Source of the DNA: an uncultured Acidobacteriota bacterium
GTDB taxonomy: Bacteria; Acidobacteriota; Thermoanaerobaculia; Multivoradales; SZUA-115
Assembly (NCBI GenBank): GCA_963805975.1
Contig: CAWDVR010000005.1
Coordinates: 256,001 to 320,000, forward strand
Length of the DNA stretch: 64,000 nucleotides
Direction: 5' to 3'
The number at the start of each line of letters is the position of its first letter. Position 1 is the stretch's first letter. Below the pieces are notes generated by a model, which made no database searches, had not been told where the DNA came from, and saw only the letters and a program-made list of their open reading frames with translations. Both the position numbers and the translations under genes were made by a program. Below, piece by piece: positions 5,572 to 34,633 of this stretch.

Positions 5572-5590
5572 ACGCCAGCACCACGAAGCG
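3782..5590. repeat. Copy 2 of ~1.8 kb near-identical NRPS segment
   Basis: Matches 446-2253 with scattered substitutions. Confidence 0.95.
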
Positions 5591-11500: not shown

Positions 11501-14146
11501 GGCGAGGAGCGCGCGCTCGGCCGCGGCGTGGCCGGCCGGCGTTCCGCCGGGCTCGGGCAGCTCTTCCGGCCCGCGGCCGGCGTAGAGCGCGCCCAGCTCT
11601 TCGAGCATCACGGCGAGCGACCACAGGTCGGTCACGATGTGGTGCGTTGCGAGCAGCAGGAGGTGGCTGCCGCCCGGCTCGGCCAGCACCAGCACGCGCA
11701 GCAGAGGCCCGCGCTCGAGGTCGAAGGACCGCTCGGCGGCGTCGAGCAGGCACTCGGTGACCGCGCCCGGGGCGGCCTCCGCCGGAAGCTCCTCGAAGCG
11801 GACCTCCGGCGGCAGGGCCTCCCACACCACCTGCTCGGGCTCGCGGCCCGGCTCCTGGCGAAACGTGGTGCGCAGCGCCGGGTGCCGCGCCACGAGCCCG
11901 AGCACGGCGCGGGAGAGCGCCTCGCGGTCGAGCGCCCCGGAAACGTGCGCCGCACCCGAGAGGTGGTAGGCGGAGGTCGCCGGCGCCAGGCGGTCCAGGA
12001 ACCAGAGCGCCCGCTGGCCGTAGCTCACCGGATAGATGCCCGGTTCGGCCAGATACACCGCAAGCCGCGCGGCCTCCTCCGCCACGGCCACGGGCGTGTC
12101 GAGGCGAGCCAGGGCCGCCTCCACCATGTCGCCCAGCGTGGCGCCGGAGAGCAGGTCTTCGAGCGGCAGCTCGACGCCGAGGCTCGACTCCACCTGGTGG
12201 CGCACCTCGACGGCGGAGAGCGAGTCGAGGCCGGCGGTGGCGAGCACCGTGTCGGGCGCCAGATCCTCCGGCCGGGTGTGGAGCAGCCGTGCGAGCTTGG
12301 CGGCCAGGAAGTCGGTCACCAGCTTGCGCCGCGCCTCGCCACCCGCGGCGGCGAGAGCGTCGCGGGCCAGCTCCGGCTCGGCCGCGGGCGGCGGCTGGCG
12401 CGCCACGCTCGCCGCCACCACGTGCAGGCCGCCTTCGAGGTGCAGCTCGCGGCATTGGCGGCGCTGCACCTTGCCGCTGGTGGTGCGGGGCAGGGTGCCG
12501 GCGCGGATCAGCACCACCTCCGCGGCGTGGACCTCGTGCTCCTCGGCGAGCGCCCGGCGCACGGCCGCCACCACCGCCTCCGGGCTCTCGTCGCCGAGGC
12601 CCCCGGTCTCGGCCACCAGCACCAGCTCCTCGTTTCCTCCGCGCTCCACGGCGAAGGCCGCGGCGCCACCGGCGGCGAGCGCCGGGTGGCTGCGCTCGGC
12701 CGCCAGCTCCAGGTCCTGTGGGTAGACGTTCCGGCCGCGGACGATCAGCAGGTCTTTGAGCCGCCCGGTGATGAACAGCTCGCCGGAGTCGAGGAAGCCG
12801 AGGTCGCCGGTGCGCAGGAACGTGCCCGCGCCGGCATCGTCCGCGAGCCGCGCGCCGAAGGTCGCCACGGTTTGCTCCGGCTGCTGCCAGTAGCCCGCGG
12901 CCACGCTGGCGCCGGCCACCCAGATCTCGCCCACCTCTCCCGGCGGCAGGCGCAGGCCCGTCGCCGGATCGACGATCTCGACCCTCGTGCCCGCGAGCAC
13001 CGGGCCGCTGCCCACCAGGTCGCGGCTGCTGGGGTCGCCGTCGGAGACCGAATCCGCGCGGTGGGCCGCGAGGCCCCGGGCGTCGAACCGTCGCACCACC
13101 GGCGGCGTTCCCACGCCGCCGCCCGAGACCAGGAGCGTGGCCTCGGCGAGGCCGTAGCAGGGCCGGAACGCCTCGCGCCGGAAGCCGGCGGGCGCGAACG
13201 CCTCGGCGAAGCGCTCGAGGGTTCCGGCGCGCACCGGCTCGGCGCCGTTGAAGGCCACCTCCCAGCGCGAGAGGTCGAGCCGCGCCCGCTCCTCGGCCGG
13301 CACGCGCGCCACGGCCAGCTCGTAGGCGAAGTTGGGCGCGCCGCTGGTGGTGGCCTGGTAGCGGCTGATCGCCTCCAGCCAGCGCGCCGGCCGCTTGAGG
13401 AACGCCATTGGCGACATCCACACGCAGTGCGCGCCCAGGAACGGCGTGTGGAGCAGGTTCCCGATCAGCCCCATGTCATGGTAGAGCGGCAGCCAGGAGA
13501 CCAGCACCGAGCCCGCGTGGCGCTCGAAGGCGCGGCCGATCAGCTCCTGGTTGGCGAGCAGGTTGGCGTGCGTGACCATCACGCCCTTGGGCGCCGCGGT
13601 CGAGCCCGAGGTGTACTGCAGGAAGGCGAGGGCACCGGGGTCGACGGCCGGTGGCCGCCAAGTCGAAGGCGCGGTGGCCGCCGCCTCTTCGAGCGTCAGC
13701 CAGGCGATGGGAGCCAGCTCGAGGTCGCCCTCGAACCAGGCGCGCGAGCGGGCGAGCACGGCGGCGCTCGCGAGCCCCAGGGCCGGCCGGCAGTCCTCCA
13801 CCATCGCGGCGAGGCGCGGCAGGGCGCGGCGCGAGCGCGGCGGGTAGGCGGGCACGGCGACCGCGCCGCAATAGAGACAGGCGAAAAAGGCCACGGCCAG
13901 CTCGAGGCCGGGCGGGAACAGCAGCAGCACCCTCTCGCCGGGTGCGACCCGGCCTCCCAGCTCCGCCGCCAGGGCGCGCGCGCGTGCCGCCAGCTCGGCA
14001 TAGCTCAGCCGGTCGGACTCGACCTCACCGTCCAGCAGGAAGGTATAGACCGGCTTCTCGGGCCGCTCGGCGGCCCGGCGGTCGAGGATCTCGGCCAGGG
14101 TGCTTGCCGAGGGGTGTGGGGTGTAAGTGGGAGCGGTCCCTGCCAA
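5522..14146 (-). CDS. NRPS initiation part: FAAL-ACP-C-A(Ala)-T-C-A(Leu)
   Basis: Motifs: FAAL (LQYTSGST, SWLPLYHDMGLIG, CYGLAEATL, PRTTSGKVQR), ACP GLDSL, C HHIVTDLWS, A1 code DLFNNALTYK (Ala-type), T GGHSI, C HHIVADGWS, A2 code DAWFLGHVVK (Leu-type). TTG start. Internal compensating frameshifts at ~6900-7145. Confidence 0.95.
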   Translation of the reverse strand: MAGTAPTYTPHPSASTLAEILDRRAAERPEKPVYTFLLDGEVESDRLSYAELAARARALAAELGGRVAPGERVLLLFPPGLELAVAFFACLYCGAVAVPAYPPRSRRALPRLAAMVEDCRPALGLASAAVLARSRAWFEGDLELAPIAWLTLEEAAATAPSTWRPPAVDPGALAFLQYTSGSTAAPKGVMVTHANLLANQELIGRAFERHAGSVLVSWLPLYHDMGLIGNLLHTPFLGAHCVWMSPMAFLKRPARWLEAISRYQATTSGAPNFAYELAVARVPAEERARLDLSRWEVAFNGAEPVRAGTLERFAEAFAPAGFRREAFRPCYGLAEATLLVSGGGVGTPPVVRRFDARGLAAHRADSVSDGDPSSRDLVGSGPVLAGTRVEIVDPATGLRLPPGEVGEIWVAGASVAAGYWQQPEQTVATFGARLADDAGAGTFLRTGDLGFLDSGELFITGRLKDLLIVRGRNVYPQDLELAAERSHPALAAGGAAAFAVERGGNEELVLVAETGGLGDESPEAVVAAVRRALAEEHEVHAAEVVLIRAGTLPRTTSGKVQRRQCRELHLEGGLHVVAASVARQPPPAAEPELARDALAAAGGEARRKLVTDFLAAKLARLLHTRPEDLAPDTVLATAGLDSLSAVEVRHQVESSLGVELPLEDLLSGATLGDMVEAALARLDTPVAVAEEAARLAVYLAEPGIYPVSYGQRALWFLDRLAPATSAYHLSGAAHVSGALDREALSRAVLGLVARHPALRTTFRQEPGREPEQVVWEALPPEVRFEELPAEAAPGAVTECLLDAAERSFDLERGPLLRVLVLAEPGGSHLLLLATHHIVTDLWSLAVMLEELGALYAGRGPEELPEPGGTPAGHAAAERALLAGARGAELWEHWRRELGGEREPLALPTDRPRPPAQSFRGAAVSRALAAPLAARLQALARERGTTLFVSLAAALQALLGRWSGQRELAVGVPTSGRASADLAGAVGYFVNPVVLAADLGGNPTAGEWIERVRTRAATAFAHQDAPFPWLAERLAPVRDPSRSPLFDVLFALERAPRHEASGIGLFALGEAGGRMALGDLTLESLPLPQRSAQFDLAWMVAEAGETLASRLIFNTDLFDRATAERFAAQLEALLLALAEAPDRPLASLALLASADRHQLLCEWNDTAREPSAGTLHGLIEAQAQRTPERIAVSWSGEQWSYAGLDARASRLAARLRSLGIAPETPVGVLLERSATLPAALLAVLKAGGAYVPLDPNYPAERLTFLVEDSGLTTVIAEPEHAEKLPPASFRLLSPSSVGGSTGHSDESTPVAWRVAPHGGPREDRSASEDRSGESCGDRTRQEQPTPGHASALLSGTSLDTAASTASTASTISAANLAYLIYTSGSTGRPKGIAIEHRSAVALVAWATEAFTPAELAGVAASTSVNFDLSVFELFVPLALGGTVIGAQNGLAVAELSEAAALTLVNTVPSVAERLAEGWLPAGLRTVNLAGEPLKPELAARLHRHPQVERLLNLYGPSEDTTYSTFTAVDRGARRVTIGRPVSGSAAYLLDRRLAPVPLGVPAELCLAGDGLARGYLGRPALTAEKWVPDPFSGRGGRLYATGDLARLLPSGEIDFLGRIDHQIKLRGFRIELGEIEARLVEQPGVRAATVLLRQDLATGPALVAYLEAEREPLTLTLSPRAGRGDRSPGLPGGAEAGSLPASSLREDAEPGSPPAPSPRGSGERAGVRGSELRDALRERLPEPMVPSFFVVLAALPLTPNGKVDRRALARLPAPQPEGEAGGGAHEPPRGSVEEAVAAAWADLLGLAEVGRHQSFFELGGHSILATQVISRLRHAFGVELPVRALFERPTVAGLAETLEAALARHGRTATAPVRPLADRGALPLSAGQERLWFLEQWQPGTAAYNMPVAARLRGRLDIAALAEALAAIAARHEGLRASFAAGDGAPVLSIAPPSPARLPVVDLAGLGAPAREAAAQKLGRSEAARPFDLERGPLFRAAALRLGEGEHFLLLALHHIVADGWSIGVLLAELGALYRARLAGEAAELPPLPVQYADYAAWQRRQIAGEALAAGLAFWRERLAGAPEKLELPLDRPRPAVPSLAGGQVRFRLPAELRARLATVGSEAGSTPFMTVLAGFATLLHRVTGQRDLVLGAPVAQRPDPALEGLIGFFVGNLVLRVDLAGDPGFRALLARCRATVLEAQAHEIPFEHLVEALNPGRGGGHAPLFQVALAWQAQPLAMALPGLAVEPLPMHSGTAKLDLALSFLDLGDGGATAAPGGLWADLEYASDLFDRTSAERLAAQLIRLLDAVAREPERPLSTLPLLSAAEAHQLGHEWGRRRGTAFRPYPGQPDLPPQPESTRPGPSLRSGRQGSLASRRRGAGARGCGLRRRAPELRRAAGPGVGCSQRGSRRSAWRPEGVVALLAPRSAELVVGMLAALEAGASFLPLDPGHPPERLAAVVQDAGAAVLLTGQGQPAGWSPAVLVLTLEPLTLTLSPQAGRGDREESFEMGGVRNGVRGSFSADARAYVIYTSGSTGRPKGVEVRHRGLANLVAWHLATYGLTAEDRTSLVASPAFDASVWEVFPALAAGSRLEIPDEDVRADPARLAPWLVERRITLSFQPTPVAELLAARHWPSETVLRALLTGGDRLQAAPAAALPFRLLNHYGPTEVTVVTTAGEVAPRPAAAVSKAPSIGRPIAGLSLLVVDRSFAPLPVGVPGELLIGGAGLARGYLGRPALTAQSFVPDPRGAEPGARLYRSGDLVRWAAAGEIDFLGRIDTQVKVRGFRIEPGEIEAALAALPAVAQAAVLARDAPGGGKALVAYVVLHESVAQADAAETLRDALAARLPSYMVPSRFVVLACPAADAERQGGPACTA
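6646..6685. repeat. REP-like palindrome family A, in-frame in NRPS A2
   Basis: CCCCTCTCCCCGC-CT-GCGGGGAGAGGG-TTAGGGTGAGGGG, encoding PLTLTLSPQAGRG. Confidence 0.9.
7041..7067. repeat. REP-like element family B in the NRPS C-A2 junction
   Basis: TGTCGTCCTGAGCGCAGCGAAGGACCT; near-copy TGTCATCCCGAGCGCAGCGAAGGATCT at intergenic 55561-55587. Confidence 0.85.
8964..9136. repeat. Inverted doublet of REP-like family A, in-frame in NRPS A1 C-terminal subdomain
   Basis: 8964-9005 and 9097-9136 are oppositely oriented copies, encoding PLTLTLSPRAGRG...PSPRGSGERAGVRG. Confidence 0.9.
10120..10222. repeat. Imperfect palindromic element (family C), in-frame in NRPS A1
   Basis: Arms TGGCGGGT..CGCCGCA..CCCCGC and GCGGGG..TGCGGCG..ACCCGCCA enclose a 15-bp direct repeat CGCTGCGGTCCTCGC (10156-10170, 10174-10188). 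Confidence 0.75.
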
Positions 14147-18671: not shown

Positions 18672-19913
18672 TCAAGCAGCGGAGATTTCCACGCGATAGC
18701 GGTCCAGGTTGTCCATGTGGCAGTTCGGCCGCTCGACCGTCCGGTGCACGATGGTCTCGAACACGCCCGAGGCGCTGGGGTACATCACCGGCTCGAGCAG
18801 CTCGCTCTCGTCGCGGATCACGCCGTTGTTCTTGGCGATCTCGAAGAGCGGCGCCTCCGGGTAGACCCGCACCCGCGGCGTCACGTCCACGTCCTTGAAC
18901 GGGATGGTGTCGAGGGTGCGGAAGGTCTCGTTGACGGTCTCCGGCGTCTCGCAGGGATGGCCGAAGAGCAGGCTGCACGCCACCTCCATGCCCAGCTCGT
19001 GGCAGAGCTCGACGGCGCGCCGCACGTCCGCCACGGTGAAGCCCTTGCGCAGCTCGAGCAGCACCTTGTCGCACAGGCTGTCGACCCCGAAGTAGACCAG
19101 CTTGCGACCGAAGGGCGGCAGCAGCTCGGCGAACTCACGGGTGAAAGCGGCCTTGTGCGGGTTGATGAAGCCGTCCCAGTCGACATCGGTCATCCCCGCC
19201 TCGAGCATGGCGCGCAGGAGCTTGTTCGCCGACTTGACCGGGATGTTGAACACCGCGTCGCAGAAGAACACCTTCTTGATGCCTTGCGCGCGCAGGTTGG
19301 CGACCTCGTCGAGCACTTCCTCGGTCGGCCGCTGCACCACGTGGTGGCCGTCGACGCCGGGGTAGTCGCAGTACTGGCAACTGAATGGGCAGCCGAACTT
19401 GGTGGCGACGCCGATCTTGTCGCCCTTGTCCAGATAAAAAGTCTTGTCCATCACGTTGCGCTGGAAGCGGCCGTTGACGTACTGCGAGAAGTCGCGGATC
19501 ACCGGCGGCGGCTCCTCGCCGGCGGCGAGCATGGCGAGGAGCTTGTCCACCGCGCCGAAGCCCTTCGAGGCCAGGGCGTGGTCCACCCCGAGGTAGGCGC
19601 GGGTCGGCTCCGGCACCAGGTTGACGCCGCTGCCGGCGACCGCGATGCGGCCGGGATGGTACTGGCGGATCTCGCGGATCACCTCGCGGGTGCGCTGCAG
19701 CTCGAAGACCGAGTTGGCCGAGCCGCTGTCCAGGTTGCGGACGGCGATCAGGAGCAGGTCGTGGCCGGGGACGACCGAGAGGTCCCGGGACACGTTCATG
19801 TCCAGCACCGTGCAGTCCCAGCCCTCGTTGAGGAGGTGCTCGGCGGTGTACTCGAGGCCTACCGGGAAGACCGGGGGGTCGAGCACGTTGGGATTGAGCA
19901 GCAGGATTCTCAT
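18672..19913 (-). CDS. B12-binding/radical SAM enzyme (putative methyltransferase, TsrM-like N-terminus)
   Basis: CPFSCQYC cluster motif; N-terminal LLNPN..PP.FP.GL and IAVRNLD segments typical of cobalamin-binding radical SAM proteins. Start placed at MRILLLNPN. Confidence 0.85.
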   Translation of the reverse strand: MRILLLNPNVLDPPVFPVGLEYTAEHLLNEGWDCTVLDMNVSRDLSVVPGHDLLLIAVRNLDSGSANSVFELQRTREVIREIRQYHPGRIAVAGSGVNLVPEPTRAYLGVDHALASKGFGAVDKLLAMLAAGEEPPPVIRDFSQYVNGRFQRNVMDKTFYLDKGDKIGVATKFGCPFSCQYCDYPGVDGHHVVQRPTEEVLDEVANLRAQGIKKVFFCDAVFNIPVKSANKLLRAMLEAGMTDVDWDGFINPHKAAFTREFAELLPPFGRKLVYFGVDSLCDKVLLELRKGFTVADVRRAVELCHELGMEVACSLLFGHPCETPETVNETFRTLDTIPFKDVDVTPRVRVYPEAPLFEIAKNNGVIRDESELLEPVMYPSASGVFETIVHRTVERPNCHMDNLDRYRVEISAA

Positions 19914-21888: not shown

Positions 21889-22914
21889 ATGGACGCACAT
21901 CGGTTGGTCTTGACAGAAGCGGAGATCGCTCACATCCAGGCCCAGCTCGCCGAGCTCGCGGCGCGCTACAGCTCGGTGGAGGACCCGCGGTTCCATCAGC
22001 TCGCCACCCTCCATGCCCACGAGCTGCCGCGGCGCGTGCGCGAGGCGATGATCGACTTTCGGGCGAACGAGCCGGCCTCGGCGCTCCTCATCGTCTCCGG
22101 CTATCCCATCGACGGCGAGAAGATCGGCCACACCCCCAAGCACTGGGAGAGCGAGCGCGACGGCGGCCGGGCGCGCGAGGAATCGATATTGCTGGTCCTC
22201 CTGGGCTCGCTCCTGGGCGAGTGCATCGGCTGGTCCACGCAGCAGGACGGGCGGCTGGTGCACGACATCTTTCCCATCAAGGGCAACGAGCAGGAGCAGC
22301 TCGGCACCGGCAGCGAGCAGGTTCTCTGGTGGCACGTGGAGGACGCCTTCCACCCCCACCGCGGCGACTACCTGGGGATGCTCTGCCTCCGGAACCCGGA
22401 CCGCGTGCCGACCACCTTCGCCGCCATGGCCGACCTCGACCTCGACCCCACCCATCTCACCCACCTGTTCGAGCCCCACTACTCGATCCGCCCGGACGAG
22501 TCGCACCTGCAGAAGAACAAGAAGAGCGATCGCGCGGTCGACGGCGAGCTCGCGGTGGCCTACGAGCGCATCGAGAAGATGAACTCGCAGGCCGAGAAGA
22601 TCGCCGTCCTCTTCGGCGACCCGCGCGCGCCCTACATCCGGCTCGACCCGTACTTCATGGAGCCGGCGGAGGACCCCGAGGCCCGGCAGGCCTTCGACAC
22701 GCTGGTCAAGGCGGTGGACGAGAAGCTCGGTGACCTGGTGCTCGAGACCGGCGACTACTGCTTCATCGACAACTTCCAGGGCGTCCACGGCCGGCGGCCG
22801 TTCAAGGCCCGCTACGACGGGCAGGACCGCTGGATGAAACGCATCAACATCACCCGCGACCTGCGCAAATCGCGCCCCTTGCGGGCCAACGCCCAGTCGC
22901 GGCTCATCAGCTAG
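21889..22914 (+). CDS. Fe(II)/2-oxoglutarate arginine beta-hydroxylase (VioC/MppO-like, TauD superfamily)
   Basis: QDGRLVHDIFP, WWHVEDAFHP (HxE iron ligands), DN..VHGRRPFKARYDG.DRWMKR. Confidence 0.88.
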   Translation: MDAHRLVLTEAEIAHIQAQLAELAARYSSVEDPRFHQLATLHAHELPRRVREAMIDFRANEPASALLIVSGYPIDGEKIGHTPKHWESERDGGRAREESILLVLLGSLLGECIGWSTQQDGRLVHDIFPIKGNEQEQLGTGSEQVLWWHVEDAFHPHRGDYLGMLCLRNPDRVPTTFAAMADLDLDPTHLTHLFEPHYSIRPDESHLQKNKKSDRAVDGELAVAYERIEKMNSQAEKIAVLFGDPRAPYIRLDPYFMEPAEDPEARQAFDTLVKAVDEKLGDLVLETGDYCFIDNFQGVHGRRPFKARYDGQDRWMKRINITRDLRKSRPLRANAQSRLIS

Positions 22915-22919
22915 ACGCC

Positions 22920-24083
22920 ATGCTCGGTCACCTCGCTCCGGCGCTCCTCGAGCGCTTCATGCGGCAGTACTACTTCGCCGTCGACGCCGACATCGGCTCG
23001 AGCGGCGTCGAGAACTTCTCGCTCGCCGACCTGAAAGCGCTCCTGGGCATCGCCCAGGAGGAGCTCGACTCCCTGGTCTTCCGCGACAGCCAGACGCTCG
23101 GCGGCAGCGGTCTGCGCCAGGCCCTGGCGGACCGCTTCGTGGGCGGCGACGCGGCCCGGGTGATGGTGACCCACGGCTCGACCGAGGCGAACTTCCTGAT
23201 CATGAGCACGCTCCTGGCACCGGGCGACGAGGTGGTGGTGCTCGACCCGCTCTACCAGCAGCTCTACGCCGTGGCCGAGGCGAGCGGTGCGGTGCTCAAG
23301 CGCTGGCCGATGCGGGTGGAGGCCGGCTTCCGCCCCGACCTCACCGAGCTCGAGGGCCTGCTCACCCCCGCGACCCGGATGGTGGTGGTGAACTTTCCCC
23401 ACAACCCGACCGGCGTCACGCTCACCCGCGGCGAGCAGGCCGAGCTGCTGCGGCAGGTCGAGCGCACCGGCGCCTACCTGGTGTGGGACGGCGCCTTCAG
23501 CGAGCTGACCTACGACGAGCCGCCGCTGCCGGAGCCCACGCTCGTCTACGAGCGGGCGCTCTCCATGGGCACTCTCTCCAAGGCCTACGGCCTGCCCGGC
23601 CTGCGGGTCGGCTGGCTGATGGCGAGCCCCGACATCCTCGAGCACTGCGCCCACCTCCGGGACTACACGCTGCTCCATCTCTCGCCGCTGATCGAGCTCC
23701 TGGCCCAGCGGGCCATCGAGCAGGCGGACGTGCTGGTGGGGCTTCGCCTCACCGCCGCCCGCGAGCAGCGCCGGATGACCGACGAATGGATCGCGCGCCA
23801 CCAGGGCGCCCTCGACTGGGTGCCGCCGGCCGGCGGCGTCTGCGGCTTCCCGCGCTTTGCCGAGGGAGTGGACGTCGACCGCTTCTGCGAGCGCCTGGCC
23901 GAGGAGCACCGCGTGCTCCTGGTGCCCGGCTCCTGCTTCGGCCAGCCGCAGCACGCCCGCCTGGGCTTCGGCTGCTCCAAGGCCGAGCTGGTCACCGGGC
24001 TGGACGCCGTCTCCCACCTGCTCGGCGAGGTGCTGGGGCGCGAGATCCCCGCTCTTCAGGCTGCGCCGGCAGCGAAAGCCTGA
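22920..24083 (+). CDS. PLP-dependent capreomycidine synthase-like (VioD-like) enzyme
   Basis: ALLERFMRQYYF..DIGSSGV N-terminus, NFPHNPTG, TLSKAYGLPGLRVGW; starts 5 bp downstream of the VioC-like gene. Confidence 0.85.
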   Translation: MLGHLAPALLERFMRQYYFAVDADIGSSGVENFSLADLKALLGIAQEELDSLVFRDSQTLGGSGLRQALADRFVGGDAARVMVTHGSTEANFLIMSTLLAPGDEVVVLDPLYQQLYAVAEASGAVLKRWPMRVEAGFRPDLTELEGLLTPATRMVVVNFPHNPTGVTLTRGEQAELLRQVERTGAYLVWDGAFSELTYDEPPLPEPTLVYERALSMGTLSKAYGLPGLRVGWLMASPDILEHCAHLRDYTLLHLSPLIELLAQRAIEQADVLVGLRLTAAREQRRMTDEWIARHQGALDWVPPAGGVCGFPRFAEGVDVDRFCERLAEEHRVLLVPGSCFGQPQHARLGFGCSKAELVTGLDAVSHLLGEVLGREIPALQAAPAAKA

Positions 24084-24877
24084 GACAGAAACGCGAACGA
24101 GCCGGGAAGCGCTCCCGCCACGTAGTCCATGTCGTGGCCGCCGGGACGCTCTTCGTAGTGGTGGGCGATGCCGGCCGTTTTGAGCGCCTGGTGGAAGGCC
24201 CGGTTCATGGCCAGCATGCGGTCGTGGTCTCCCGCGCCCACGTCGAGGTAGAGGGCGGCGGCGGGCGCGAGGCCCGGTGACAGGTAGCGGTAGGGGTCGT
24301 ACTCCTGCCGCGTGGCCGAGCCCGGTGGCCCCCACACTGCGTCGTGCTCGGCCTCGGTCGGCATGAACTCCGGCCGCGCCGCTCCCAGGGCGGCGTAGGG
24401 GTCGCCCTCGCGGCGCGGTGCGTCGAACGCCCCGGCGTGGCAGGCCACGGCCGAGAAGAGGCCGGGGTGACGGGCGGCGAGGAGGAAGGCCGCGGCGCCG
24501 CCCATCGAGAAGCCGGCAAGCGCCCGTCTCGCGCCATCGATCGGCCGGCCGATGCGGGCCTCGACCGCGGAGATCAGCTCGCCCACGAAGTAGTCCTCGT
24601 AGCGCAGGCCCTGGTGGTCGTTGATGAGCCAGCGCCGGAAGCTCTCCGGAAAGGCGGAGACCCAGGGCGCGGCCAGCACCTGCGCCGCGATCTCCGGGTG
24701 GGAGAGGAAGGACTCGGCGGTGCCGCCCCAGCCGTGCAGGAAGTAGCAGATGGGGAGCGGCACGCCGTCGTCCGCTCCGTCCGGCACCACCATCAGGCAG
24801 CGCTTGGCCGGGCGCGCGAGGCTGCGCGACGGGTGCCGCAGCGTGAGCACGCGCGGGTGCGAGGCGAGGCCGTTCAT
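24056..24877 (-). CDS. Alpha/beta-hydrolase esterase (S-formylglutathione hydrolase-like), possible thioesterase
   Basis: YFLHGWGG, GFSMGG nucleophile elbow, DVGAGD, GGHD; ATGA overlap with the adenylase gene. Confidence 0.85.
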   Translation of the reverse strand: MNGLASHPRVLTLRHPSRSLARPAKRCLMVVPDGADDGVPLPICYFLHGWGGTAESFLSHPEIAAQVLAAPWVSAFPESFRRWLINDHQGLRYEDYFVGELISAVEARIGRPIDGARRALAGFSMGGAAAFLLAARHPGLFSAVACHAGAFDAPRREGDPYAALGAARPEFMPTEAEHDAVWGPPGSATRQEYDPYRYLSPGLAPAAALYLDVGAGDHDRMLAMNRAFHQALKTAGIAHHYEERPGGHDMDYVAGALPGSFAFLSQAFAAGAA

Positions 24878-26424
24878 GCCGGGGAGCTGCCGAGCCCCGC
24901 GGCGAGCGCCCGGCGGTCCACCTTGCCGCGGTCGGTGCGGGGCAGGGAAGAAACGAGATGGATCTCCGCCGGCACCATGTACGGCGGCAGGCGCTCGGCG
25001 AGCTGGCGGCGCCACGTCTCCGGCAACGCGGCGTCGGGCTCCGCGCCCTTCGCCGCCACCCAGGCCACCAGCCGCTCGCCGACCACGGCCACCGCCGTCT
25101 CGCCGACCGCCGGCAGGGCCGCGAGCTGCTCTTCGACGTCCCCCAGCTCGATGCGGTAGCCGGCGAGCTTGACCTGGAAGTCCTTGCGGCCGTGGAAGAG
25201 GTAGCGACCCCGGCCGTCGACCGACACCAGGTCGCCGGTGGGGTAGAAGGCACGCCCGCTTCCCGGCTCGCGCCAGAGCACGGAGGAGTCCACGGCGCCG
25301 TCCCGGAAGTAGCCGGAGAGGAGCGAGGCGCCGGCCACCAGCAGCTCGCCCACGCCGTCCTCCTCCTGGCGCACCAGGAGCTCGCTGTAGGGGCAGGCGC
25401 GCCCGATCGGCAAGGGGCCCGGGTCCTCGAGGTCGTCCGCGCCCACCTCGTGATAGAGGCAGACGTTGGTTTCCGTGGGGCCGTAGAGGTTGGCGAGCAG
25501 GGCTCCCGGCACGAGCTGCGCGAGCTCCACCACCCCGGCCTTGGGAAAGGGCTCGCCGGCGAAGAGCACGGCGCGCAACGAGTCCAGCCGCGCCGGCCGC
25601 CGGCGCTGGCTGGCGGTGATGCGGGCGAGAACGGTGGGCACCGAGTACCAGACCGTGACCGCCTTCTGCTCGATGAAGCGCGCGAAGGGCTCGCCGCGGC
25701 CGAGCGCGTACTCCGGCACCGGCAGCAGACAGGCGGCAGCGCGCACCGCCGCGAAGAGGTCGAAGACCGAGAGATCGAAGGACAGCGAGGCGTGGTTGGC
25801 CACGCGGTCCTCGGGGCGGAGGAGGGCGAGGTCGCCGGCCCAGTCGACGAAGGCGCAGGCCGCGCGCTGGGAGAGGGCGACGCCCTTGGGCACACCGGTC
25901 GAGCCCGAGGTGCAGAGAATGTAGGCCAGCTCCTCGTCCTCGGCCGCGTGGGGCCGGCCGTTGCCGCCCGCGGCCAGGAGGTCGCGCCAGGAGAGCACCT
26001 CGAGGCCGCCTGCTGCCGGGAGCGGCGCCGCCGTGGGCGCGTCCACCACCACGGCGAGCCGCAGGCCGGGAGGGGCGAGGGGTGCCAGGTGGGCGAGCTC
26101 CAGGCGCCGGCAGACCACGGCCTCGCAGCCGGTCACCGCCAGCACGGCGGCGGCGCGGGCGGCCGGGGCCGCGATGTCGATCGGCACGTAGGGAGCGCCG
26201 AGGCGCAGGGCGGCGAACACCGCGACGGGCACCTCGGCGCTCTTCGGCAGCCACAGGCCGATGCGGGCGCCGGGCCCCACGCCGCGGCGGGCGAGGCCGG
26301 CGGCCACCGCCGCGGCCCGGCGCTCGAGCTCGGCGTAGGTGAGGAGGTCGCTGCCGTGCTCCACCGCCGTGCGGCCGGGGTGGTTGGCGGCGGCGGCGGC
26401 GAGATAGTCGTAGAGCGGCGACAT
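24874..26424 (-). CDS. Stand-alone adenylation enzyme, L-proline-activating PltF/RedM/CloN4 type
   Basis: CTSGSTGVPKG, SFDLSVFD, WYSVP, LFAGE, NLYGPTETNVC; hand-read code DLFYLALVCK matches the pyrrole-pathway Pro adenylase signature. Confidence 0.85.
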   Translation of the reverse strand: MSPLYDYLAAAAANHPGRTAVEHGSDLLTYAELERRAAAVAAGLARRGVGPGARIGLWLPKSAEVPVAVFAALRLGAPYVPIDIAAPAARAAAVLAVTGCEAVVCRRLELAHLAPLAPPGLRLAVVVDAPTAAPLPAAGGLEVLSWRDLLAAGGNGRPHAAEDEELAYILCTSGSTGVPKGVALSQRAACAFVDWAGDLALLRPEDRVANHASLSFDLSVFDLFAAVRAAACLLPVPEYALGRGEPFARFIEQKAVTVWYSVPTVLARITASQRRRPARLDSLRAVLFAGEPFPKAGVVELAQLVPGALLANLYGPTETNVCLYHEVGADDLEDPGPLPIGRACPYSELLVRQEEDGVGELLVAGASLLSGYFRDGAVDSSVLWREPGSGRAFYPTGDLVSVDGRGRYLFHGRKDFQVKLAGYRIELGDVEEQLAALPAVGETAVAVVGERLVAWVAAKGAEPDAALPETWRRQLAERLPPYMVPAEIHLVSSLPRTDRGKVDRRALAAGLGSSPA

Positions 26425-26449
26425 GGCGGCCGGCAGCTCCCGGGGGTAG

Positions 26450-27613
26450 CTAGAGCCCGAGGGCGCTCGCCAGGAGGTTTTTCTGGATGTCGGAGGTGCC
26501 GGAGGCGATGGTCCCCGCCACCGCGTCGCGCACGTCGCGCTCGGCGACGGCGCCGTCGGCACCCGGGCGGCGCGAGTAGCCGGCGCCGCCCAGCACCCGC
26601 AGGCCGTCGAGGTGCGCGGCGAGCGCTCCTTCGGAGAGCACCAGCTTGGCGAGCGGGGCGAGCGTCGAGTCCCCGCGCTCGAAGAGGGCCTGGGCGGCGG
26701 CGCGCAGCACCAGGCGCATCTGCCAGTACTGGGCGAGCATGCCGACGATGCGGTGCGAGACCGCCTGGTAGCTCGCGATCGGCTGGCCGAACTGGCGGCG
26801 CTCGCGGGCGTGCTCCACGGCGCGCTCGATCTGCCGCCGCACGGCGCCCACCTGCGGCGCCTGGATCAGCGCCCGCTCCCAGGCGAGCGAGGTCTGGAAG
26901 ATCTGGTTGCCGCGGCGCTCGCGGCCGAGGAGGGCGCCCTGCGGCACGAAGCAGTTCTGGAGGGTGAGCGAGGCGAGCGGCGCGCCCTCGAGGCCCATCA
27001 GCGGCTCGGGCGGCCCCACCGCGAGGCCCGGCGTCTCGCGGGGCACGAGGAAGGCAGAGATGCCGCGGAAGTGCAGCCGCGGGTCGCTGGTGGCGAAGAT
27101 CACGAACAGGTCGGCGGCCGGCGCGTTGGTCACCCAGCGCTTGGCGCCGTCGAGCACGAACCCGCCGCCTTCCGCGCGGTAGCGGGTGGCGAGGCTCATC
27201 ACGTCGGAGCCGGCCCCGGCCTCGGTGGCGGCATGGGCACCCACCAGGCTGCCGTCGAGGAGCGGCGGCAGCCAGCGCGCTTTCTGCTCGTCGCTGCCGA
27301 AGTCGGCCACCGGCCGGGCCACGGCCCAGAGGTGCGCGCCGGCGCCGAACAGAGGGCCGAATGCGGGCAGGCCGGCGCCCAGGCCCTCGAGGAAGTCCAG
27401 CACCTCCTCGCAGCCGAGCCCCGGGCCGCCGAGCTCCGCGGGGAACGGCAGGCGAAAGAAGCCGCAGCGGCCGAGGCCCCGCCACAGCTCGCGGCTGAAG
27501 CCCGCCGCGTCGCCGTCAGCCGAGCCGTTGACCGCCGGGGCCAGCTCCTCGGCGGCGATGCGGCGCGCCTCTCGGTAGCGCTCCGTGGGCGGCGGAAAGC
27601 ACGGCTCGAGCAT
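26450..27613 (-). CDS. Acyl-CoA dehydrogenase family, L-prolyl-PCP dehydrogenase-like (PltE/RedW)
   Basis: GAHLWAV, AHAATEAGAGSD, GAKRWVTNAP, RRQFGQPIASYQAVSHRI, TIASGTSDIQ; adjacent to the Pro adenylase. Confidence 0.88.
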   Translation of the reverse strand: MLEPCFPPPTERYREARRIAAEELAPAVNGSADGDAAGFSRELWRGLGRCGFFRLPFPAELGGPGLGCEEVLDFLEGLGAGLPAFGPLFGAGAHLWAVARPVADFGSDEQKARWLPPLLDGSLVGAHAATEAGAGSDVMSLATRYRAEGGGFVLDGAKRWVTNAPAADLFVIFATSDPRLHFRGISAFLVPRETPGLAVGPPEPLMGLEGAPLASLTLQNCFVPQGALLGRERRGNQIFQTSLAWERALIQAPQVGAVRRQIERAVEHARERRQFGQPIASYQAVSHRIVGMLAQYWQMRLVLRAAAQALFERGDSTLAPLAKLVLSEGALAAHLDGLRVLGGAGYSRRPGADGAVAERDVRDAVAGTIASGTSDIQKNLLASALGL

Positions 27614-27630
27614 CCGAGGGTCGCCCGACC

Positions 27631-29028
27631 TCAAGCGCCAGCGACGAGGTACTTGTGCTGTTCTTCCTCGAGCGCCGCGAGGCTCCGGGAGACCACCTCG
27701 TCGGGGATCACGCAATCCTCCATCATGCCCTGGAGGTGCTCCTGGTAGCCGCTCAGGTCGAAGGCGCCGCCGCCGCTGATGTTGACCAGCAGCACCGGCG
27801 ACTTGTCGCCGCTGCCGGCGCGGCGCGCCTCTTCGATCGCCGCGCAGAGCGCGTGTGCGGACTCGGGCGCCGGCAGCACGCCCTCGGTGCGCGCGAAGAG
27901 CATCGCGGCGTCGAACACCGCCCGCTGCGGGCAGGCCACGGCCTCGAACACGCGATCGGCGAAGAGCGCGGAGAGAAACGGCGAGGTGCCGTGGTAGCGC
28001 AGGCCGCCGGCGTGGATGCCGGGGGCCTCGAAGCCGCTGCCCAGGGTCATCATCCGCGCCACCGGGGTGGTGCCGGAGAAGTCGGTGCGGGTGTAGGCGT
28101 AGACCCCGCGGGTCATCTTGGGGCAGCCCGCCGGCTCGACCGCCACGCAGCGCGGCCGGTGCGGCTGCGCTGCGTCGCCCAGGAAGGGGAAGGTGATGCC
28201 GGCGAAATTGCTGCCGGCGCCCATGCAGGCGAAGATCGCGTCCGGGTACTCGCCCAGGGCCCGCATCTGCCCCAGGGCCTCCTGGCCGATCACCGTCTGG
28301 TGCAGCAGCACGTGGTTCTCGCCGCTGCCCACGGCGAAGAGGGTGCGCTCGCCGGAGGCCGCCATCTCCAGCGCCTCGCCAGTCGCCAGCGCCAGGGTGC
28401 CGAGCTTGCTGGCGCTCTCGGCAAGGGCGCGCCGCCCGACGGCGGTCAGGTCGCTCGGGCTCTCGTGGAGGCGGGCGCCGAAGATCTCCATCATGGTGCG
28501 CCGCTGCGGCTTCTGGCGCAGCGACACGGCCGGCATGAAGACCGTGCACTCGAGGCCGAAGAGCTGGCAGGCGAAGGCCAGCGCCGTGCCCCACTGGCCG
28601 GCGCCGGTGCCGGTCACCAGATGTCGCACCCCGGCCTGCCGGTAGTAGTAGGCCTGGGCGAGGGCGCTGTTGAGCTTGTGGCTGCCGGAGATGTTGGCGC
28701 CTTCATACTTGTAGTAGATGCGCGCCGAGGTGCCGATGGCGCGCTCCAGGCGGCTGGCGCGGCGCAGCGGCGTCGGGCGGTAGAGGGCATAGCACTCGCG
28801 CACCGGCTCGGGGATCGCGATCTCGCGCTGCGTGGTGTTGAACGACTGGCGGGCGATCGCCAGCGGCATCTTCGGCAGGTGGCGGTAGAGGTCGTCGGCC
28901 AGCGGGTCGGCCGCCCCCGGCAGCTTCGCGCCCGCTTCGCCGTGCTGCGGGTAATCGGCCAGGAGGTTCCGCCAGGTGGTGGGGACGCCGATCGCGCTCT
29001 CCGTGGTGGGCTCGGTCAAAACGCTCAT
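27631..29028 (-). CDS. TrpB2-type PLP beta-substitution enzyme with a remodelled active site
   Basis: YRPTPLRRA, KYEG..SGSHKLNSA (PLP Lys), TGAGQWG, HAGGLRYHG, PAPESAHA; no trpA in the window. Confidence 0.92.
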   Translation of the reverse strand: MSVLTEPTTESAIGVPTTWRNLLADYPQHGEAGAKLPGAADPLADDLYRHLPKMPLAIARQSFNTTQREIAIPEPVRECYALYRPTPLRRASRLERAIGTSARIYYKYEGANISGSHKLNSALAQAYYYRQAGVRHLVTGTGAGQWGTALAFACQLFGLECTVFMPAVSLRQKPQRRTMMEIFGARLHESPSDLTAVGRRALAESASKLGTLALATGEALEMAASGERTLFAVGSGENHVLLHQTVIGQEALGQMRALGEYPDAIFACMGAGSNFAGITFPFLGDAAQPHRPRCVAVEPAGCPKMTRGVYAYTRTDFSGTTPVARMMTLGSGFEAPGIHAGGLRYHGTSPFLSALFADRVFEAVACPQRAVFDAAMLFARTEGVLPAPESAHALCAAIEEARRAGSGDKSPVLLVNISGGGAFDLSGYQEHLQGMMEDCVIPDEVVSRSLAALEEEQHKYLVAGA

Positions 29029-29369
29029 CCAGCCTTCCCCCGCGCCGCCTTGGCGGCGAGAAAATCGATCAAGTCGCCGAGCGTCACCGGTGCGGCCTCG
29101 TAGAGGTCCTCGTCGTCGACCACGATGCCCAGCGCACCCTCCATGCCGAGCAGGAGGCGCAGGAACCCCGAAGAGCTCACCACCTGGCTCAGCAGTCGGT
29201 CCTCTTCGGCAATAGAAGAGGGGCTATCCGAGGTCAGCCGGCAGACCTCCTGCCAGAGGAGCGCGGCGACGCGCTCGCGGCCGTCCGCGGCCCCTGCCGG
29301 TTCGAGGTGGGCGCCGGCCCCTCCTGTTTCGAGGTCCAGAGCCGGCGGTGCATAGGAGGGGTCTCTCAA
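29025..29369 (-). CDS. Stand-alone carrier protein (PCP/ACP), start uncertain
   Basis: Small acidic helical protein, EDRLLSQVVSSSGFLRLLLGMEGALGIVVDDEDL..TLGDLIDFL; ATGA overlap with the TrpB-like gene. Confidence 0.75.
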   Translation of the reverse strand: MRDPSYAPPALDLETGGAGAHLEPAGAADGRERVAALLWQEVCRLTSDSPSSIAEEDRLLSQVVSSSGFLRLLLGMEGALGIVVDDEDLYEAAPVTLGDLIDFLAAKAARGKAG

Positions 29370-29384
29370 GCCGGGTCACTCCGT

Positions 29385-30899
29385 TCAGGACAAATGTGCA
29401 GTCGGCGGCGTTGTAGTGACAGCCGCGGCGCGCGGATCTTGCTCCAGGGGCCCGGGACGGGGGGAACGGCGCCGCTCGAGCAGCCGCCCGCCGCGGATCA
29501 GCCACGCCCAGGCCGCCACCGCCAGGTCGAATCCCAGCCAGCGGGCGATCCGCCGCTGCCGGTTGTAGCGCGCCAGCGCCTCGGCATAGGGCAGGGTGGT
29601 GTGGGCGATCAAGGTGTAGATCGGCACCCAGCGCCGCGGGAAGAAGCGGGCCAGGAGGCCTTCGCAGCCTTTCCTCGCGATCACGTGCGGGTCGCGGATC
29701 TTGTCGCGCAGCTCGACGAAGTTGTGGATCGAGAGCGCCGCGAGCGCGTCCGTGTTGCGCTTCCTGGCGCTCTCGTAGGCGGCGAAGGCGGCGCCGCGGT
29801 CCTGGTGGTGCCGGTCGAGGGAGTCGGCGAGCGCCGCGCAGTCCTCGAAGCCGGCGATCATCCCCTGGCCGAAGAACGGCACCACGGTGTGGCAGGCGTC
29901 GCCCACCAGCACCACCCGCTGCCCGTCGTGCCAGGGCGAGGTCTGGACGGTGGCAAAGGTCGAGGTCGGATGGCGCTCGAAATCGCGCTCCAGGGTGGGG
30001 AGAAGCGGCACCACGTCCGGGAAGCGGGCGGCGAAGAGCGCCCGCACGGCCTCGTCGGTCGAGAGCGCGGCGAAGCTCGGCCGCGCGCCCTCCCGCCACG
30101 GTGCCGTGCTCGGCGAGGAGCCGTTCGCCGCCGCCCGGGCGGGCCCCTCCGCGGGCATCGTGCAGATGCAGTTGAACGAGCCGTCCCGGTTGGGAAGCGC
30201 CATCAGCATGCAGTCGCCGCGCGGCCAGACGTGGAGCGCGTGCGGCTCCATGCGGTAGGAGCCGCCGTTCGCGGCCGGGATCTTCAGCTCCTTGTAGTCC
30301 CAGGACAGGAACTTCTGCTGATAGTCGGCGCGCTTGCCGCGGTGGAGCGCCTGGCGCACGGCCGAGAACGAGCCGTCGGCGCCGATCACCAGATCGCTCT
30401 TGGTGGTCACCGAGCGCTGGGTGTCGAGGTCGCGGAAGAAGACCGTGCCGGACTCGGGGTCGAGACGCAGGAACGACTTGCGGAAGTGGAAGCGGATGTT
30501 GCTCCGCCCCTCGGCGGCGGTCATCAGGGCGCTGTTGAGGTCGTTGCGCGCGATGGCGTGCAGGATCTCCTCGCCCGAGCGGCCGTAGGGGAAGAAGCGC
30601 CGGCTGCCGTCCAGGCCGTGGACGATGCGGCCCCGGACCGGCACGGTGAGCGGCATCACGGCCGGCAGCAGGTCCGCCCGCTCGAGCACCGCGAGGCCGC
30701 GCCGCGAGAGCGTCATGTTGAGCGAGCGGCTGGGGCCGACGAACCCCTTGCGGATGTCGCCCCGCAGCTCGTACACGTCGACCTCGAAGCCGCGCCGCGC
30801 GAGCTCGATCGCGGTCAGGCTGCCGCTCATGCCGGCGCCCACCACACACACCAGATTGCCGTTGCCGGAAGTCATGCCCTCGTCGATCCGTTCTCTCAT
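29385..30899 (-). CDS. Kynurenine 3-monooxygenase-like FAD monooxygenase
   Basis: VGAGMSG, RSLNMTLSRRG, GADGSFSAVR, YKELKIP, ALHVWPRG, GDACHTVVPFFGQGM.AGFEDC. Confidence 0.88.
   Translation of the reverse strand: MRERIDEGMTSGNGNLVCVVGAGMSGSLTAIELARRGFEVDVYELRGDIRKGFVGPSRSLNMTLSRRGLAVLERADLLPAVMPLTVPVRGRIVHGLDGSRRFFPYGRSGEEILHAIARNDLNSALMTAAEGRSNIRFHFRKSFLRLDPESGTVFFRDLDTQRSVTTKSDLVIGADGSFSAVRQALHRGKRADYQQKFLSWDYKELKIPAANGGSYRMEPHALHVWPRGDCMLMALPNRDGSFNCICTMPAEGPARAAANGSSPSTAPWREGARPSFAALSTDEAVRALFAARFPDVVPLLPTLERDFERHPTSTFATVQTSPWHDGQRVVLVGDACHTVVPFFGQGMIAGFEDCAALADSLDRHHQDRGAAFAAYESARKRNTDALAALSIHNFVELRDKIRDPHVIARKGCEGLLARFFPRRWVPIYTLIAHTTLPYAEALARYNRQRRIARWLGFDLAVAAWAWLIRGGRLLERRRSPRPGPLEQDPRAAAVTTTPPTAHLS

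Positions 30900-30949: not shown

Positions 30950-34633
<3,684 letters not shown>

Follow-up and report, generated by a model that had tools for sequence, protein, structure and literature searches.

A TrpB2-like enzyme with an altered active site in a carrier- and pyrrole-associated gene cassette of an uncultured Acidobacteriota bacterium: a candidate route to new aromatic amino acids

The window analysed here is a stretch of 64,000 nucleotides from an uncultured Acidobacteriota bacterium (Thermoanaerobaculia; Multivoradales; SZUA-115; assembly GCA_963805975.1, contig CAWDVR010000005.1, positions 256,001 to 320,000 of the forward strand). It carries a gene cassette centred on a TrpB2-like pyridoxal 5'-phosphate (PLP) enzyme, for which an earlier note, made from the sequence alone, had proposed the synthesis of a new aryl-alanine from proline and serine. 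The note's description of six co-oriented genes separated by at most 25 bp or overlapping was borne out by the coordinates of the open reading frames (ORFs), which all lie on the minus strand with inter-ORF gaps of 15, -4, 17, 25, and -4 bp. The genes, with the evidence for each in brackets, are:

29385-30899, minus strand: flavin monooxygenase resembling kynurenine 3-monooxygenase (KMO), accessory (family scans)
29025-29369, minus strand: stand-alone carrier protein (custom profile, invariant Ser, docking model; no Pfam match)
27631-29028, minus strand: TrpB2-like PLP enzyme of a Gly-type clade (PRK12391, PDB register, conserved columns)
26450-27613, minus strand: acyl-CoA-dehydrogenase-like flavoprotein, similar to dehydrogenases of prolyl groups on peptidyl carrier proteins (PCP) (PDB and NCBIfam matches)
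24874-26424, minus strand: stand-alone proline adenylase, code DLFYLALVCK (code and PDB match 6o6e)
24056-24877, minus strand: esterase of family PF00756 (Pfam, motif positions)

The TrpB2-like protein scores 558.8 bits against PRK12391 (cut-off 366) and 471.9 bits against TIGR01415, below the cut-off of 518.85. The PLP lysine (K118, in SHK118LN) and the phosphate loop GAGSN at position 270 are kept as in the TrpB2 paralogues of the same sequence family (6hul, 4qys, and 6hte), with which beta-substitution through an aminoacrylate is likely shared. However, the motif VTETGAGQWG of solved TrpB2s reads VTGTGAGQWG. In an ungapped register of 51 residues, Gly140 aligns with position 105 of 8egy and with positions 109 and 104 of chains that we take to follow the Salmonella and Pyrococcus numbering, respectively. 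It thus stands in place of the Glu (E109/E105/E104) that presumably activates indole in tryptophan-forming TrpB2s. The same position is changed from Glu to Gly in TyrS / Tm9D8 E105G (8egy), a laboratory-evolved TrpB1 with a non-indole nucleophile that acts on free phenols, and two reports tie E105G in engineered TrpB to the alkylation of phenol or naphthol (PMC12909874, PMC13174591). Unlike TyrS, the enzyme found here belongs to a natural TrpB2 clade, has a second new Glu, and has a predicted carrier-bound substrate.

This second Glu lies in a GSGE loop (G236-E237) where the TrpB2 paralogues have GSVL. Among 131 full-length proteins from the loci described below, G236-E237 occurs in 108 of 108 proteins with Gly at the catalytic position (Gly-type) and in 0 of 23 that retain Glu (Glu-type), all 23 of which have V-L or V-M in these columns. 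In the alignment, the new Glu is present whenever the old catalytic Glu is lost. A FastTree phylogeny of 63 rows, which we picked from the 131 proteins, places the 44 Gly-type rows on one side of a single branch with a Shimodaira-Hasegawa (SH)-like support of 100. The Gly-type clade spans Acidobacteriota, Actinomycetota, Pseudomonadota, Myxococcota, Chloroflexota, and Gemmatimonadota, and the best 120 protein matches comprise 112 Gly-type sequences, two with Ala, and six without a match to the motif. A genome of the same genus encodes a further TrpB2 with Asp at the position of the catalytic Glu (TDTGAGQWG, locus L333; labels of this form denote loci or contigs). Deep-branching or divergent Gly-type TrpBs also accompany carriers beside other chemistry in L058 (cupin-MetRS and Lys/Orn hydroxylases), L071, and L261 (a carbamoyltransferase and ATP-grasp enzymes).

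The gene neighbourhood follows the Gly/Glu distinction. Three locus scans, of which the best 80 each of 91, 226, and 286 were taken, gave 210 distinct loci, 186 Gly-type and 24 Glu-type; 83 and 9 of these, respectively, were excluded for having less than 4 kb of flank on either side. A dehydrogenase and a Pro-code adenylase within 8 kb were found in 83 of the 103 well-flanked Gly-type loci and in 0 of 15 Glu-type loci. Two of the scans had been pre-selected on the Gly and GSGE motifs, and in the first, which had not, the ratios were 42/47 and 0/15. When 300 genomes were drawn evenly from the class (TrpB threshold 1e-125), a sample that may overlap the genomes behind the earlier loci, 17 other matches were obtained. 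Carrier, dehydrogenase, and radical SAM genes lie in the short flanks of all three Gly-type members of this set and of none of the 14 Glu-type members. The esterase gene was found in 50 of the 103 Gly-type loci. The core cassette is also present in cultured members of Streptomyces, Actinomadura, and the myxobacteria. Among 40 related genomes checked, a TrpB match at 1e-80 was obtained in a same-genus genome only, and the closest relative, the Thermoanaerobaculia contig L001, is 70-91% identical over the whole region.

The conserved part is a core of carrier, TrpB2, dehydrogenase, adenylase, and esterase. Conservation of all six genes was rejected, as 1 locus out of 103 others has the KMO-like gene together with the cassette, and the closest relatives of this gene are found apart from the cassette. 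A scan seeded with the KMO-like protein (66 loci; L097-L120 tabulated, the other 42 weak) met the cassette in the L001 contig only. Conversely, the note had omitted a B12-binding radical SAM gene at 18672-19913, whose linkage to the cassette is seen in other genomes. This gene forms a unit with the core of five genes, and the monooxygenase is a local extra.

Although a Pfam scan gave no match for the carrier, its identification in the earlier note is sound. A profile built from 13 Pfam-verified neighbouring carriers matches it with an E-value of 1.3e-16, and one Ser and one Asp are invariant across 64 sequences. The phosphopantetheine Ser is likely Ser66 (VVSSSGF), and the carrier helix is acidic (DDEDL). 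Among loci with sufficient flank, TrpB has a carrier gene directly beside it in 141 of 150 of the Gly type and in 0 of 20 of the Glu type, a comparison that leans toward the Gly loci because the 13 profile sequences came from Gly-type neighbours. The adjoining carrier is retained in all 17 well-flanked Gly loci without pyrrole genes, most of which have a PF13454 flavoprotein, a CoA-ligase-like enzyme, and LysE instead.

A model of the complex of TrpB (residues 14-458), the carrier core, and PLP reached a score of 0.74, compared with 0.00 for the best of three controls. The score mark that the model passes is attained by 116 of 157 solved pairs and 2 of 215 mismatched pairs, counts that apply only roughly because own alignments and the PLP ligand were used. 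The docking runs share at least 59% of contacts, with a partner pLDDT (predicted local distance difference test) of at least 77. The modelled interface comprises the invariant Ser and Asp of the carrier and TrpB residues 44-63, 131-133, and 319-323. At TrpB positions 57, 60, 62, and 132 the Gly clade mostly has Ser, Arg, Ser, and Ala, whereas in the Glu clade no residue is more frequent there than Glu (8, 11, 22, and 14 of 23 sequences). This loss of acidic surface residues fits the acidic carrier helix and, like the exchanges of Glu for Gly and of GSVL for GSGE and the adjoining carrier gene, sets the enzyme apart from the TrpB2 paralogues. Docking of the TrpB2-like enzyme on the carrier is thus predicted; to our knowledge, there is no solved TrpB-carrier complex. 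In the CysM/CysO system, too, a PLP enzyme of fold type II uses aminoacrylate to alkylate a nucleophile carried by a protein, but there the nucleophile is a C-terminal thiocarboxylate and a C-S bond is formed, not a bond to a phosphopantetheine-bound ring.

The remaining core genes point to a proline-derived acyl unit. The adenylase code DLFYLALVCK was confirmed at positions that we assume from GrsA numbering, and we take it to mean proline; the best stand-alone PDB match is 6o6e, an L-proline--[prolyl-carrier protein] ligase. The dehydrogenase is most similar to 6cxt (243 bits), the prolyl-ACP (acyl carrier protein) dehydrogenase 4irn (236), and the L-prolyl-PCP dehydrogenase 5zw0 (226), and keeps Glu246 in a WER motif. 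Its best NCBIfam matches, RedW (319.7, cut-off 650) and PigA (290.6, cut-off 500), are both below cut-off. Presumably, 6cxt and 5zw0 are four-electron enzymes and 4irn is a two-electron enzyme. A stand-alone proline adenylase, a carrier, and a prolyl-PCP dehydrogenase are common to PltF/PltL/PltE, PigI/G/A, RedM/O/W, Bmp4/1/3, and AnaC/D/B. In such trios the fate of the pyrrolyl group is halogenation, methylation, or transfer as an acyl starter. Here, in contrast, it is a PLP enzyme that constantly accompanies the genes, and a starter condensation (C) domain is missing from some of the partner nonribosomal peptide synthetases (NRPSs). As to an acceptor for an acyl starter, the main NRPS of the window has a start of the fatty acyl-AMP ligase (FAAL) type, the C domain adjacent to the cassette has no second His, and the NRPS in L296 has no starter C domain.

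The esterase scores 71.5 bits against PF00756 (cut-off 22), with motifs at positions 122, 212, and 246. Its triad would consist of Ser124 (GFSMGG), His248, and likely Asp217, the Asp being placed by alignment only. In L258 and L277 it is fused to the adenylase. It likely frees the product from the carrier, for which Bmp1-type thioesterase release is a precedent. The 83 full cassettes divide into 50 with the esterase alone, 29 with a lipid-A-type acyltransferase alone, and 4 with neither of the two; no cassette has both. Esterase and acyl-carrier-type acyltransferase, which both consume acyl-carrier thioesters, are thus mutually exclusive, and the split tracks lineage.

On this basis, it appears somewhat probable that a carrier-bound pyrrole is alkylated with aminoacrylate by the TrpB2-like enzyme and then released by the esterase. 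We infer each chemical step. The adenylase would load proline onto the carrier, and the dehydrogenase would oxidise it there to pyrrolyl-2-carbonyl-S-PCP. The TrpB2-like enzyme would then dock on the carrier and add an aminoacrylate derived from Ser or phosphoserine to the tethered ring, in our preferred reading at carbon C5 or C4, and the esterase would release (carboxy-pyrrolyl)alanine. Tailoring would be cluster-specific, in this genome by B12 radical SAM methylation and possibly by the KMO-like monooxygenase, before an aromatic-type NRPS module takes up the residue. The re-specified TrpB of the earlier note, joining a Ser-derived alanine to a Pro-derived pyrrole, thus gains strong comparative support from the loss of the catalytic Glu, the occurrence of the cassette across phyla, and NRPSs of sister clusters that start with an adenylation (A) domain and have no starter C domain.

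The ring could also be released first. In that case the esterase would free pyrrole-2-carboxylate, which UbiD would decarboxylate in some clusters, and TrpB would alkylate the free ring to pyrrolyl-alanine. The thioester is a poorer nucleophile than free pyrrole or its carboxylate, adenylase and esterase are fused in two loci, and a UbiD gene follows the esterase gene in L243 and L164, the nearest relatives outside the genus. The L243 UbiD, however, scores 278 bits to 6h6x and 130 to PA0254, which we take to be decarboxylases of furandicarboxylate and pyrrole-2-carboxylate, respectively, so that a substituted ring fits better. Presentation of the ring on the carrier is preferred because the carrier gene adjoins TrpB, even in the 17 Gly loci without pyrrole genes, because the docking model passes, and because no esterase gene was detected in 33 of the 83 cassettes. 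Release before alkylation is accordingly considered rather unlikely.

Partner genes in sister clusters provide hints on the product. Besides UbiD, these include a gene for an Asn-synthase-like amidotransferase, which follows the esterase gene in Actinomadura loci, and a PaaK-like ligase in alphaproteobacterial and myxobacterial loci. All three would fit a product that retains the ring carboxylate. In L296, the cassette consists of a B3/4 domain, radical SAM, carrier, TrpB, dehydrogenase, and an adenylase-esterase fusion, and faces an NRPS of four A, three C, and four thiolation (T) domains and one thioesterase (TE) domain. An A domain comes first, and the four near-identical codes, DTWTVAG(V/C)GK, are of the aromatic type. 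This NRPS has no starter C domain and offers no place at which an acyl starter could enter. A B3/4 domain, of the kind that edits tRNA, would suit a free amino acid that acts as a mimic. The arrangement in L296 is the best indirect evidence for an aryl-alanine, and clusters of this type predict a homo-tetrapeptide of the new residue. MbtH and an A-initiated four-module NRPS are found opposite the full cassette, with its B3/4 and radical SAM genes, at L296:5569-17429 together with L297:1-5349, and similarly in L299/L300 and L186.

The same clusters bear on whether the carrier-bound unit forms a different bond. Alkylation might occur at N1 or C3, or the enamine of a dehydroprolyl-PCP oxidised by two electrons might be the attacking species. 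If the new amine were then to attack the thioester and close a ring, the result would be a bicyclic lactam, or a pyrroline or pyrrolidine amino acid, instead of an aryl-alanine. The AnaB-type 4irn nearly equals 6cxt as a match to the dehydrogenase, and cassettes without esterase need another exit from the carrier. Moreover, the catalytic Glu steers reaction to C3 of indole, and its loss removes the known control of C- versus N-alkylation. The four aromatic-type modules and the B3/4 domain of L296, however, point to a free aromatic alpha-amino acid, and the UbiD and amidotransferase partners imply that an aryl carboxylate survives. We regard these other bonds, and the cyclised products to which they might lead, as unlikely.

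Several observations weigh against C-alkylation of a carrier-bound pyrrole as well. The carbonyl thioester deactivates pyrrole as a nucleophile, and given the near-equal scores of four- and two-electron dehydrogenases the aromatic pyrrole is putative. The co-occurrence counts come from one clade and are not independent events. The counts behind the docking mark apply only roughly. No UbiD of the cluster type was found in the source genome. Finally, the closest domain to the candidate NRPS module DSFTLAAVSK, which lies outside the window, is in L243 (60% identity), but relatives at 52-56% occur in genomes in which no Gly-type TrpB was found, and the code is generically aromatic-type. Identification of the consuming module by likeness of A domains was therefore abandoned; it had looked specific among 86 domains, mostly from cassette clusters, and failed a class-wide control.

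Taken more broadly, it is about an even call that the Gly/GSGE clade comprises widespread carrier-dependent, C-C bond-forming PLP enzymes that make new amino acids from carrier-bound acyl units. These would be pyrrolyl-alanines in lipopeptides, the homo-tetrapeptide of L296, and surface glycans, with a different product from the Streptomyces cassette of flavoprotein, CoA ligase, and LysE. If so, the cassette would represent a new route to non-proteinogenic aromatic amino acids for peptide natural products and, from nature, a precedent for an active-site change obtained in enzyme engineering through directed evolution. The two-residue signature (TGTGAGQW and GSGE) would also allow mining of many orphan clusters now annotated as tryptophan synthase. 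The cassette is real and widespread, apparently undescribed, and apparently amino-acid-building. No published description was found in a search that excluded subscription papers and MIBiG, so that a prior description is possible; database names of cluster members are generic in nine clusters, and plasmid matches gave no named gene.

The KMO-like monooxygenase shares the fold and the residues at the amino-acid end with the family of kynurenine 3-monooxygenase and violacein VioC. R91, Y105, N393, and Y428 correspond to Arg84, Tyr98, Asn369, and Tyr404, all of which are kept. In Pseudomonas KMO these four residues hold the carboxylate end of kynurenine (PMC6376250). The ring pocket (Leu213, Ile224, Leu226, Phe238, and Met373 of KMO) reads L, M, L, T, L and thus keeps two of five residues, with the exchanges I224M, F238T, and M373L; of 20 homologues used for comparison (L099-L118), 18 keep the pair Phe238 and Met373. 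A pocket specific for pyrrole was considered and is unsupported, as L098 and L307 share this pocket and no cassette was found near it there. This TrpB query gave no match in either genome, although the L098 assembly may be incomplete. The enzyme probably oxidises a free aromatic amino acid. That this is the cassette product, subject to hydroxylation or decarboxylative hydroxylation, is possible but falls somewhat short of an even chance; kynurenine or another residue is the other candidate. The source genome has a second KMO-like gene adjoining another NRPS. A second KMO-like gene beside a DUF6875 gene is seen at L293:7509-15656 and in L328, L329, and L330, with an MFS transporter in three of these four loci and a reductase-ended NRPS in three of four.

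The conserved amino-acid-end residues would also fit another explanation, in which the TrpB2 serves as a tryptophan synthase for indole salvage, 3-hydroxykynurenine is made by the KMO-like enzyme, and the pyrrole trio provides an independent acyl starter. The earlier note had stated that trpA, tryptophan dioxygenase, and kynureninase are missing. None was seen in the window, so that neither of the latter two adjoins the KMO-like gene, but this says little, because trpBA, the dioxygenase, and kynureninase are all encoded elsewhere in the genome. The dioxygenase and kynureninase genes favour such a route, and its KMO part is plausible alone. Against it stand the altered ring pocket, the trpBA genes elsewhere, the lost catalytic Glu, and the fact that Glu-type TrpB2s lie beside a carrier in 0 of 20 loci and beside pyrrole genes in 0 of 15. 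We consider the explanation as a whole highly improbable.

Three further features of the window concern methylation and the possible use of the product:

18672-19913, minus strand: B12-binding radical SAM enzyme, probable methyltransferase (family scans, linkage in other genomes)
30950-34633, minus strand: stand-alone T-C-A-T NRPS (domain scan, A code; possible link to the cassette)
5522-14146, minus strand: first gene of a large lipopeptide NRPS with FAAL-type start, continuing upstream beyond the window (domain scan)

The radical SAM protein shares 45% identity with the one encoded in L258 immediately upstream of the carrier gene, and such genes occur in eight Gly-type loci and no Glu-type locus. 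Given this linkage, methylation of the ring or of the side chain is likely in this genome. Between the radical SAM gene and the cassette lies an insert on the plus strand (21889-24083) encoding a VioC/GntD-like hydroxylase, a VioD capreomycidine synthase (510.5 bits, cut-off 390.9), and a cyclic peptide exporter. The NRPS cluster that holds the cassette extends over about 115 kb, with long genes split into many ORFs in this assembly, and 21 C-domain motifs were located in it. That the main NRPS starts with a fatty acid, as the earlier note stated, is supported by its opening FAAL-type domain, an assignment for which we presume the motif reading. This lipopeptide NRPS is the probable user of the cassette product. 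At the far end of the same cluster (L295:5559-9504), argininosuccinate-lyase-like, PLP-enzyme, and ATP-grasp genes resemble what we take to be a diamino-acid supply set.

The T-C-A-T NRPS lies 50 bp upstream of the cassette in the same orientation, and a 78% identical copy is conserved in L001. Thus, cassette and T-C-A-T gene might make a separate small product, such as a basic amino acid bearing a pyrrolyl amide, without feeding the lipopeptide. However, the C motif HQIAAD has no second His, the sole such case among the 21, and the A code DALDLGSVTK is shared with one main-line module that is also the best match by identity (51%), as would be expected for a trans-acting supplier. A separate product would also leave the TrpB unexplained and is improbable.

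Other Gly-type loci differ in their surroundings. Compact cassettes in L245-L257, L265, L269, L280, and L291 (for example L249:8995-14978) encode LysE, a carrier, a Gly-type TrpB, a PF13454 flavoprotein, and a CoA-ligase-like enzyme; they have no pyrrole genes and no esterase match. We speculate that here the carrier holds a C3 unit, derived from Asp and N-oxidised, which after alkylation releases itself as an isoxazolinone-alanine, presumably like TAN-950A; a literature search found no paper on this. In Streptomyces (L081-L086, L087-L091, and L092-L096), the cassette lies in NRPS clusters that share a conserved Tyr-like module and also contain TauD and SbnA/B-like genes. Two of these three clusters have genes of the methylerythritol phosphate (MEP) pathway, and prenyl or terpene synthases are annotated in one. 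Comparison of the terpene genes, the diaminopropionate (Dap) genes, and the Tyr-like module gave no known compound; terpenoyl or acyl lipopeptides are the probable products. Cassettes without a nearby NRPS are found in L002, L025, and many soil Actinomycetota loci, and in L018, L022, L282, and L292. In the Actinomycetota loci the cassette is accompanied by glycosyltransferases and a lipid-A-type acyltransferase, in some cases also by a LanB-N/PEARL-like gene; the other four loci have a PaaK-like ligase, with adjoining polysaccharide genes in L018. These NRPS-free cassettes suggest a role in the decoration of surface glycans.

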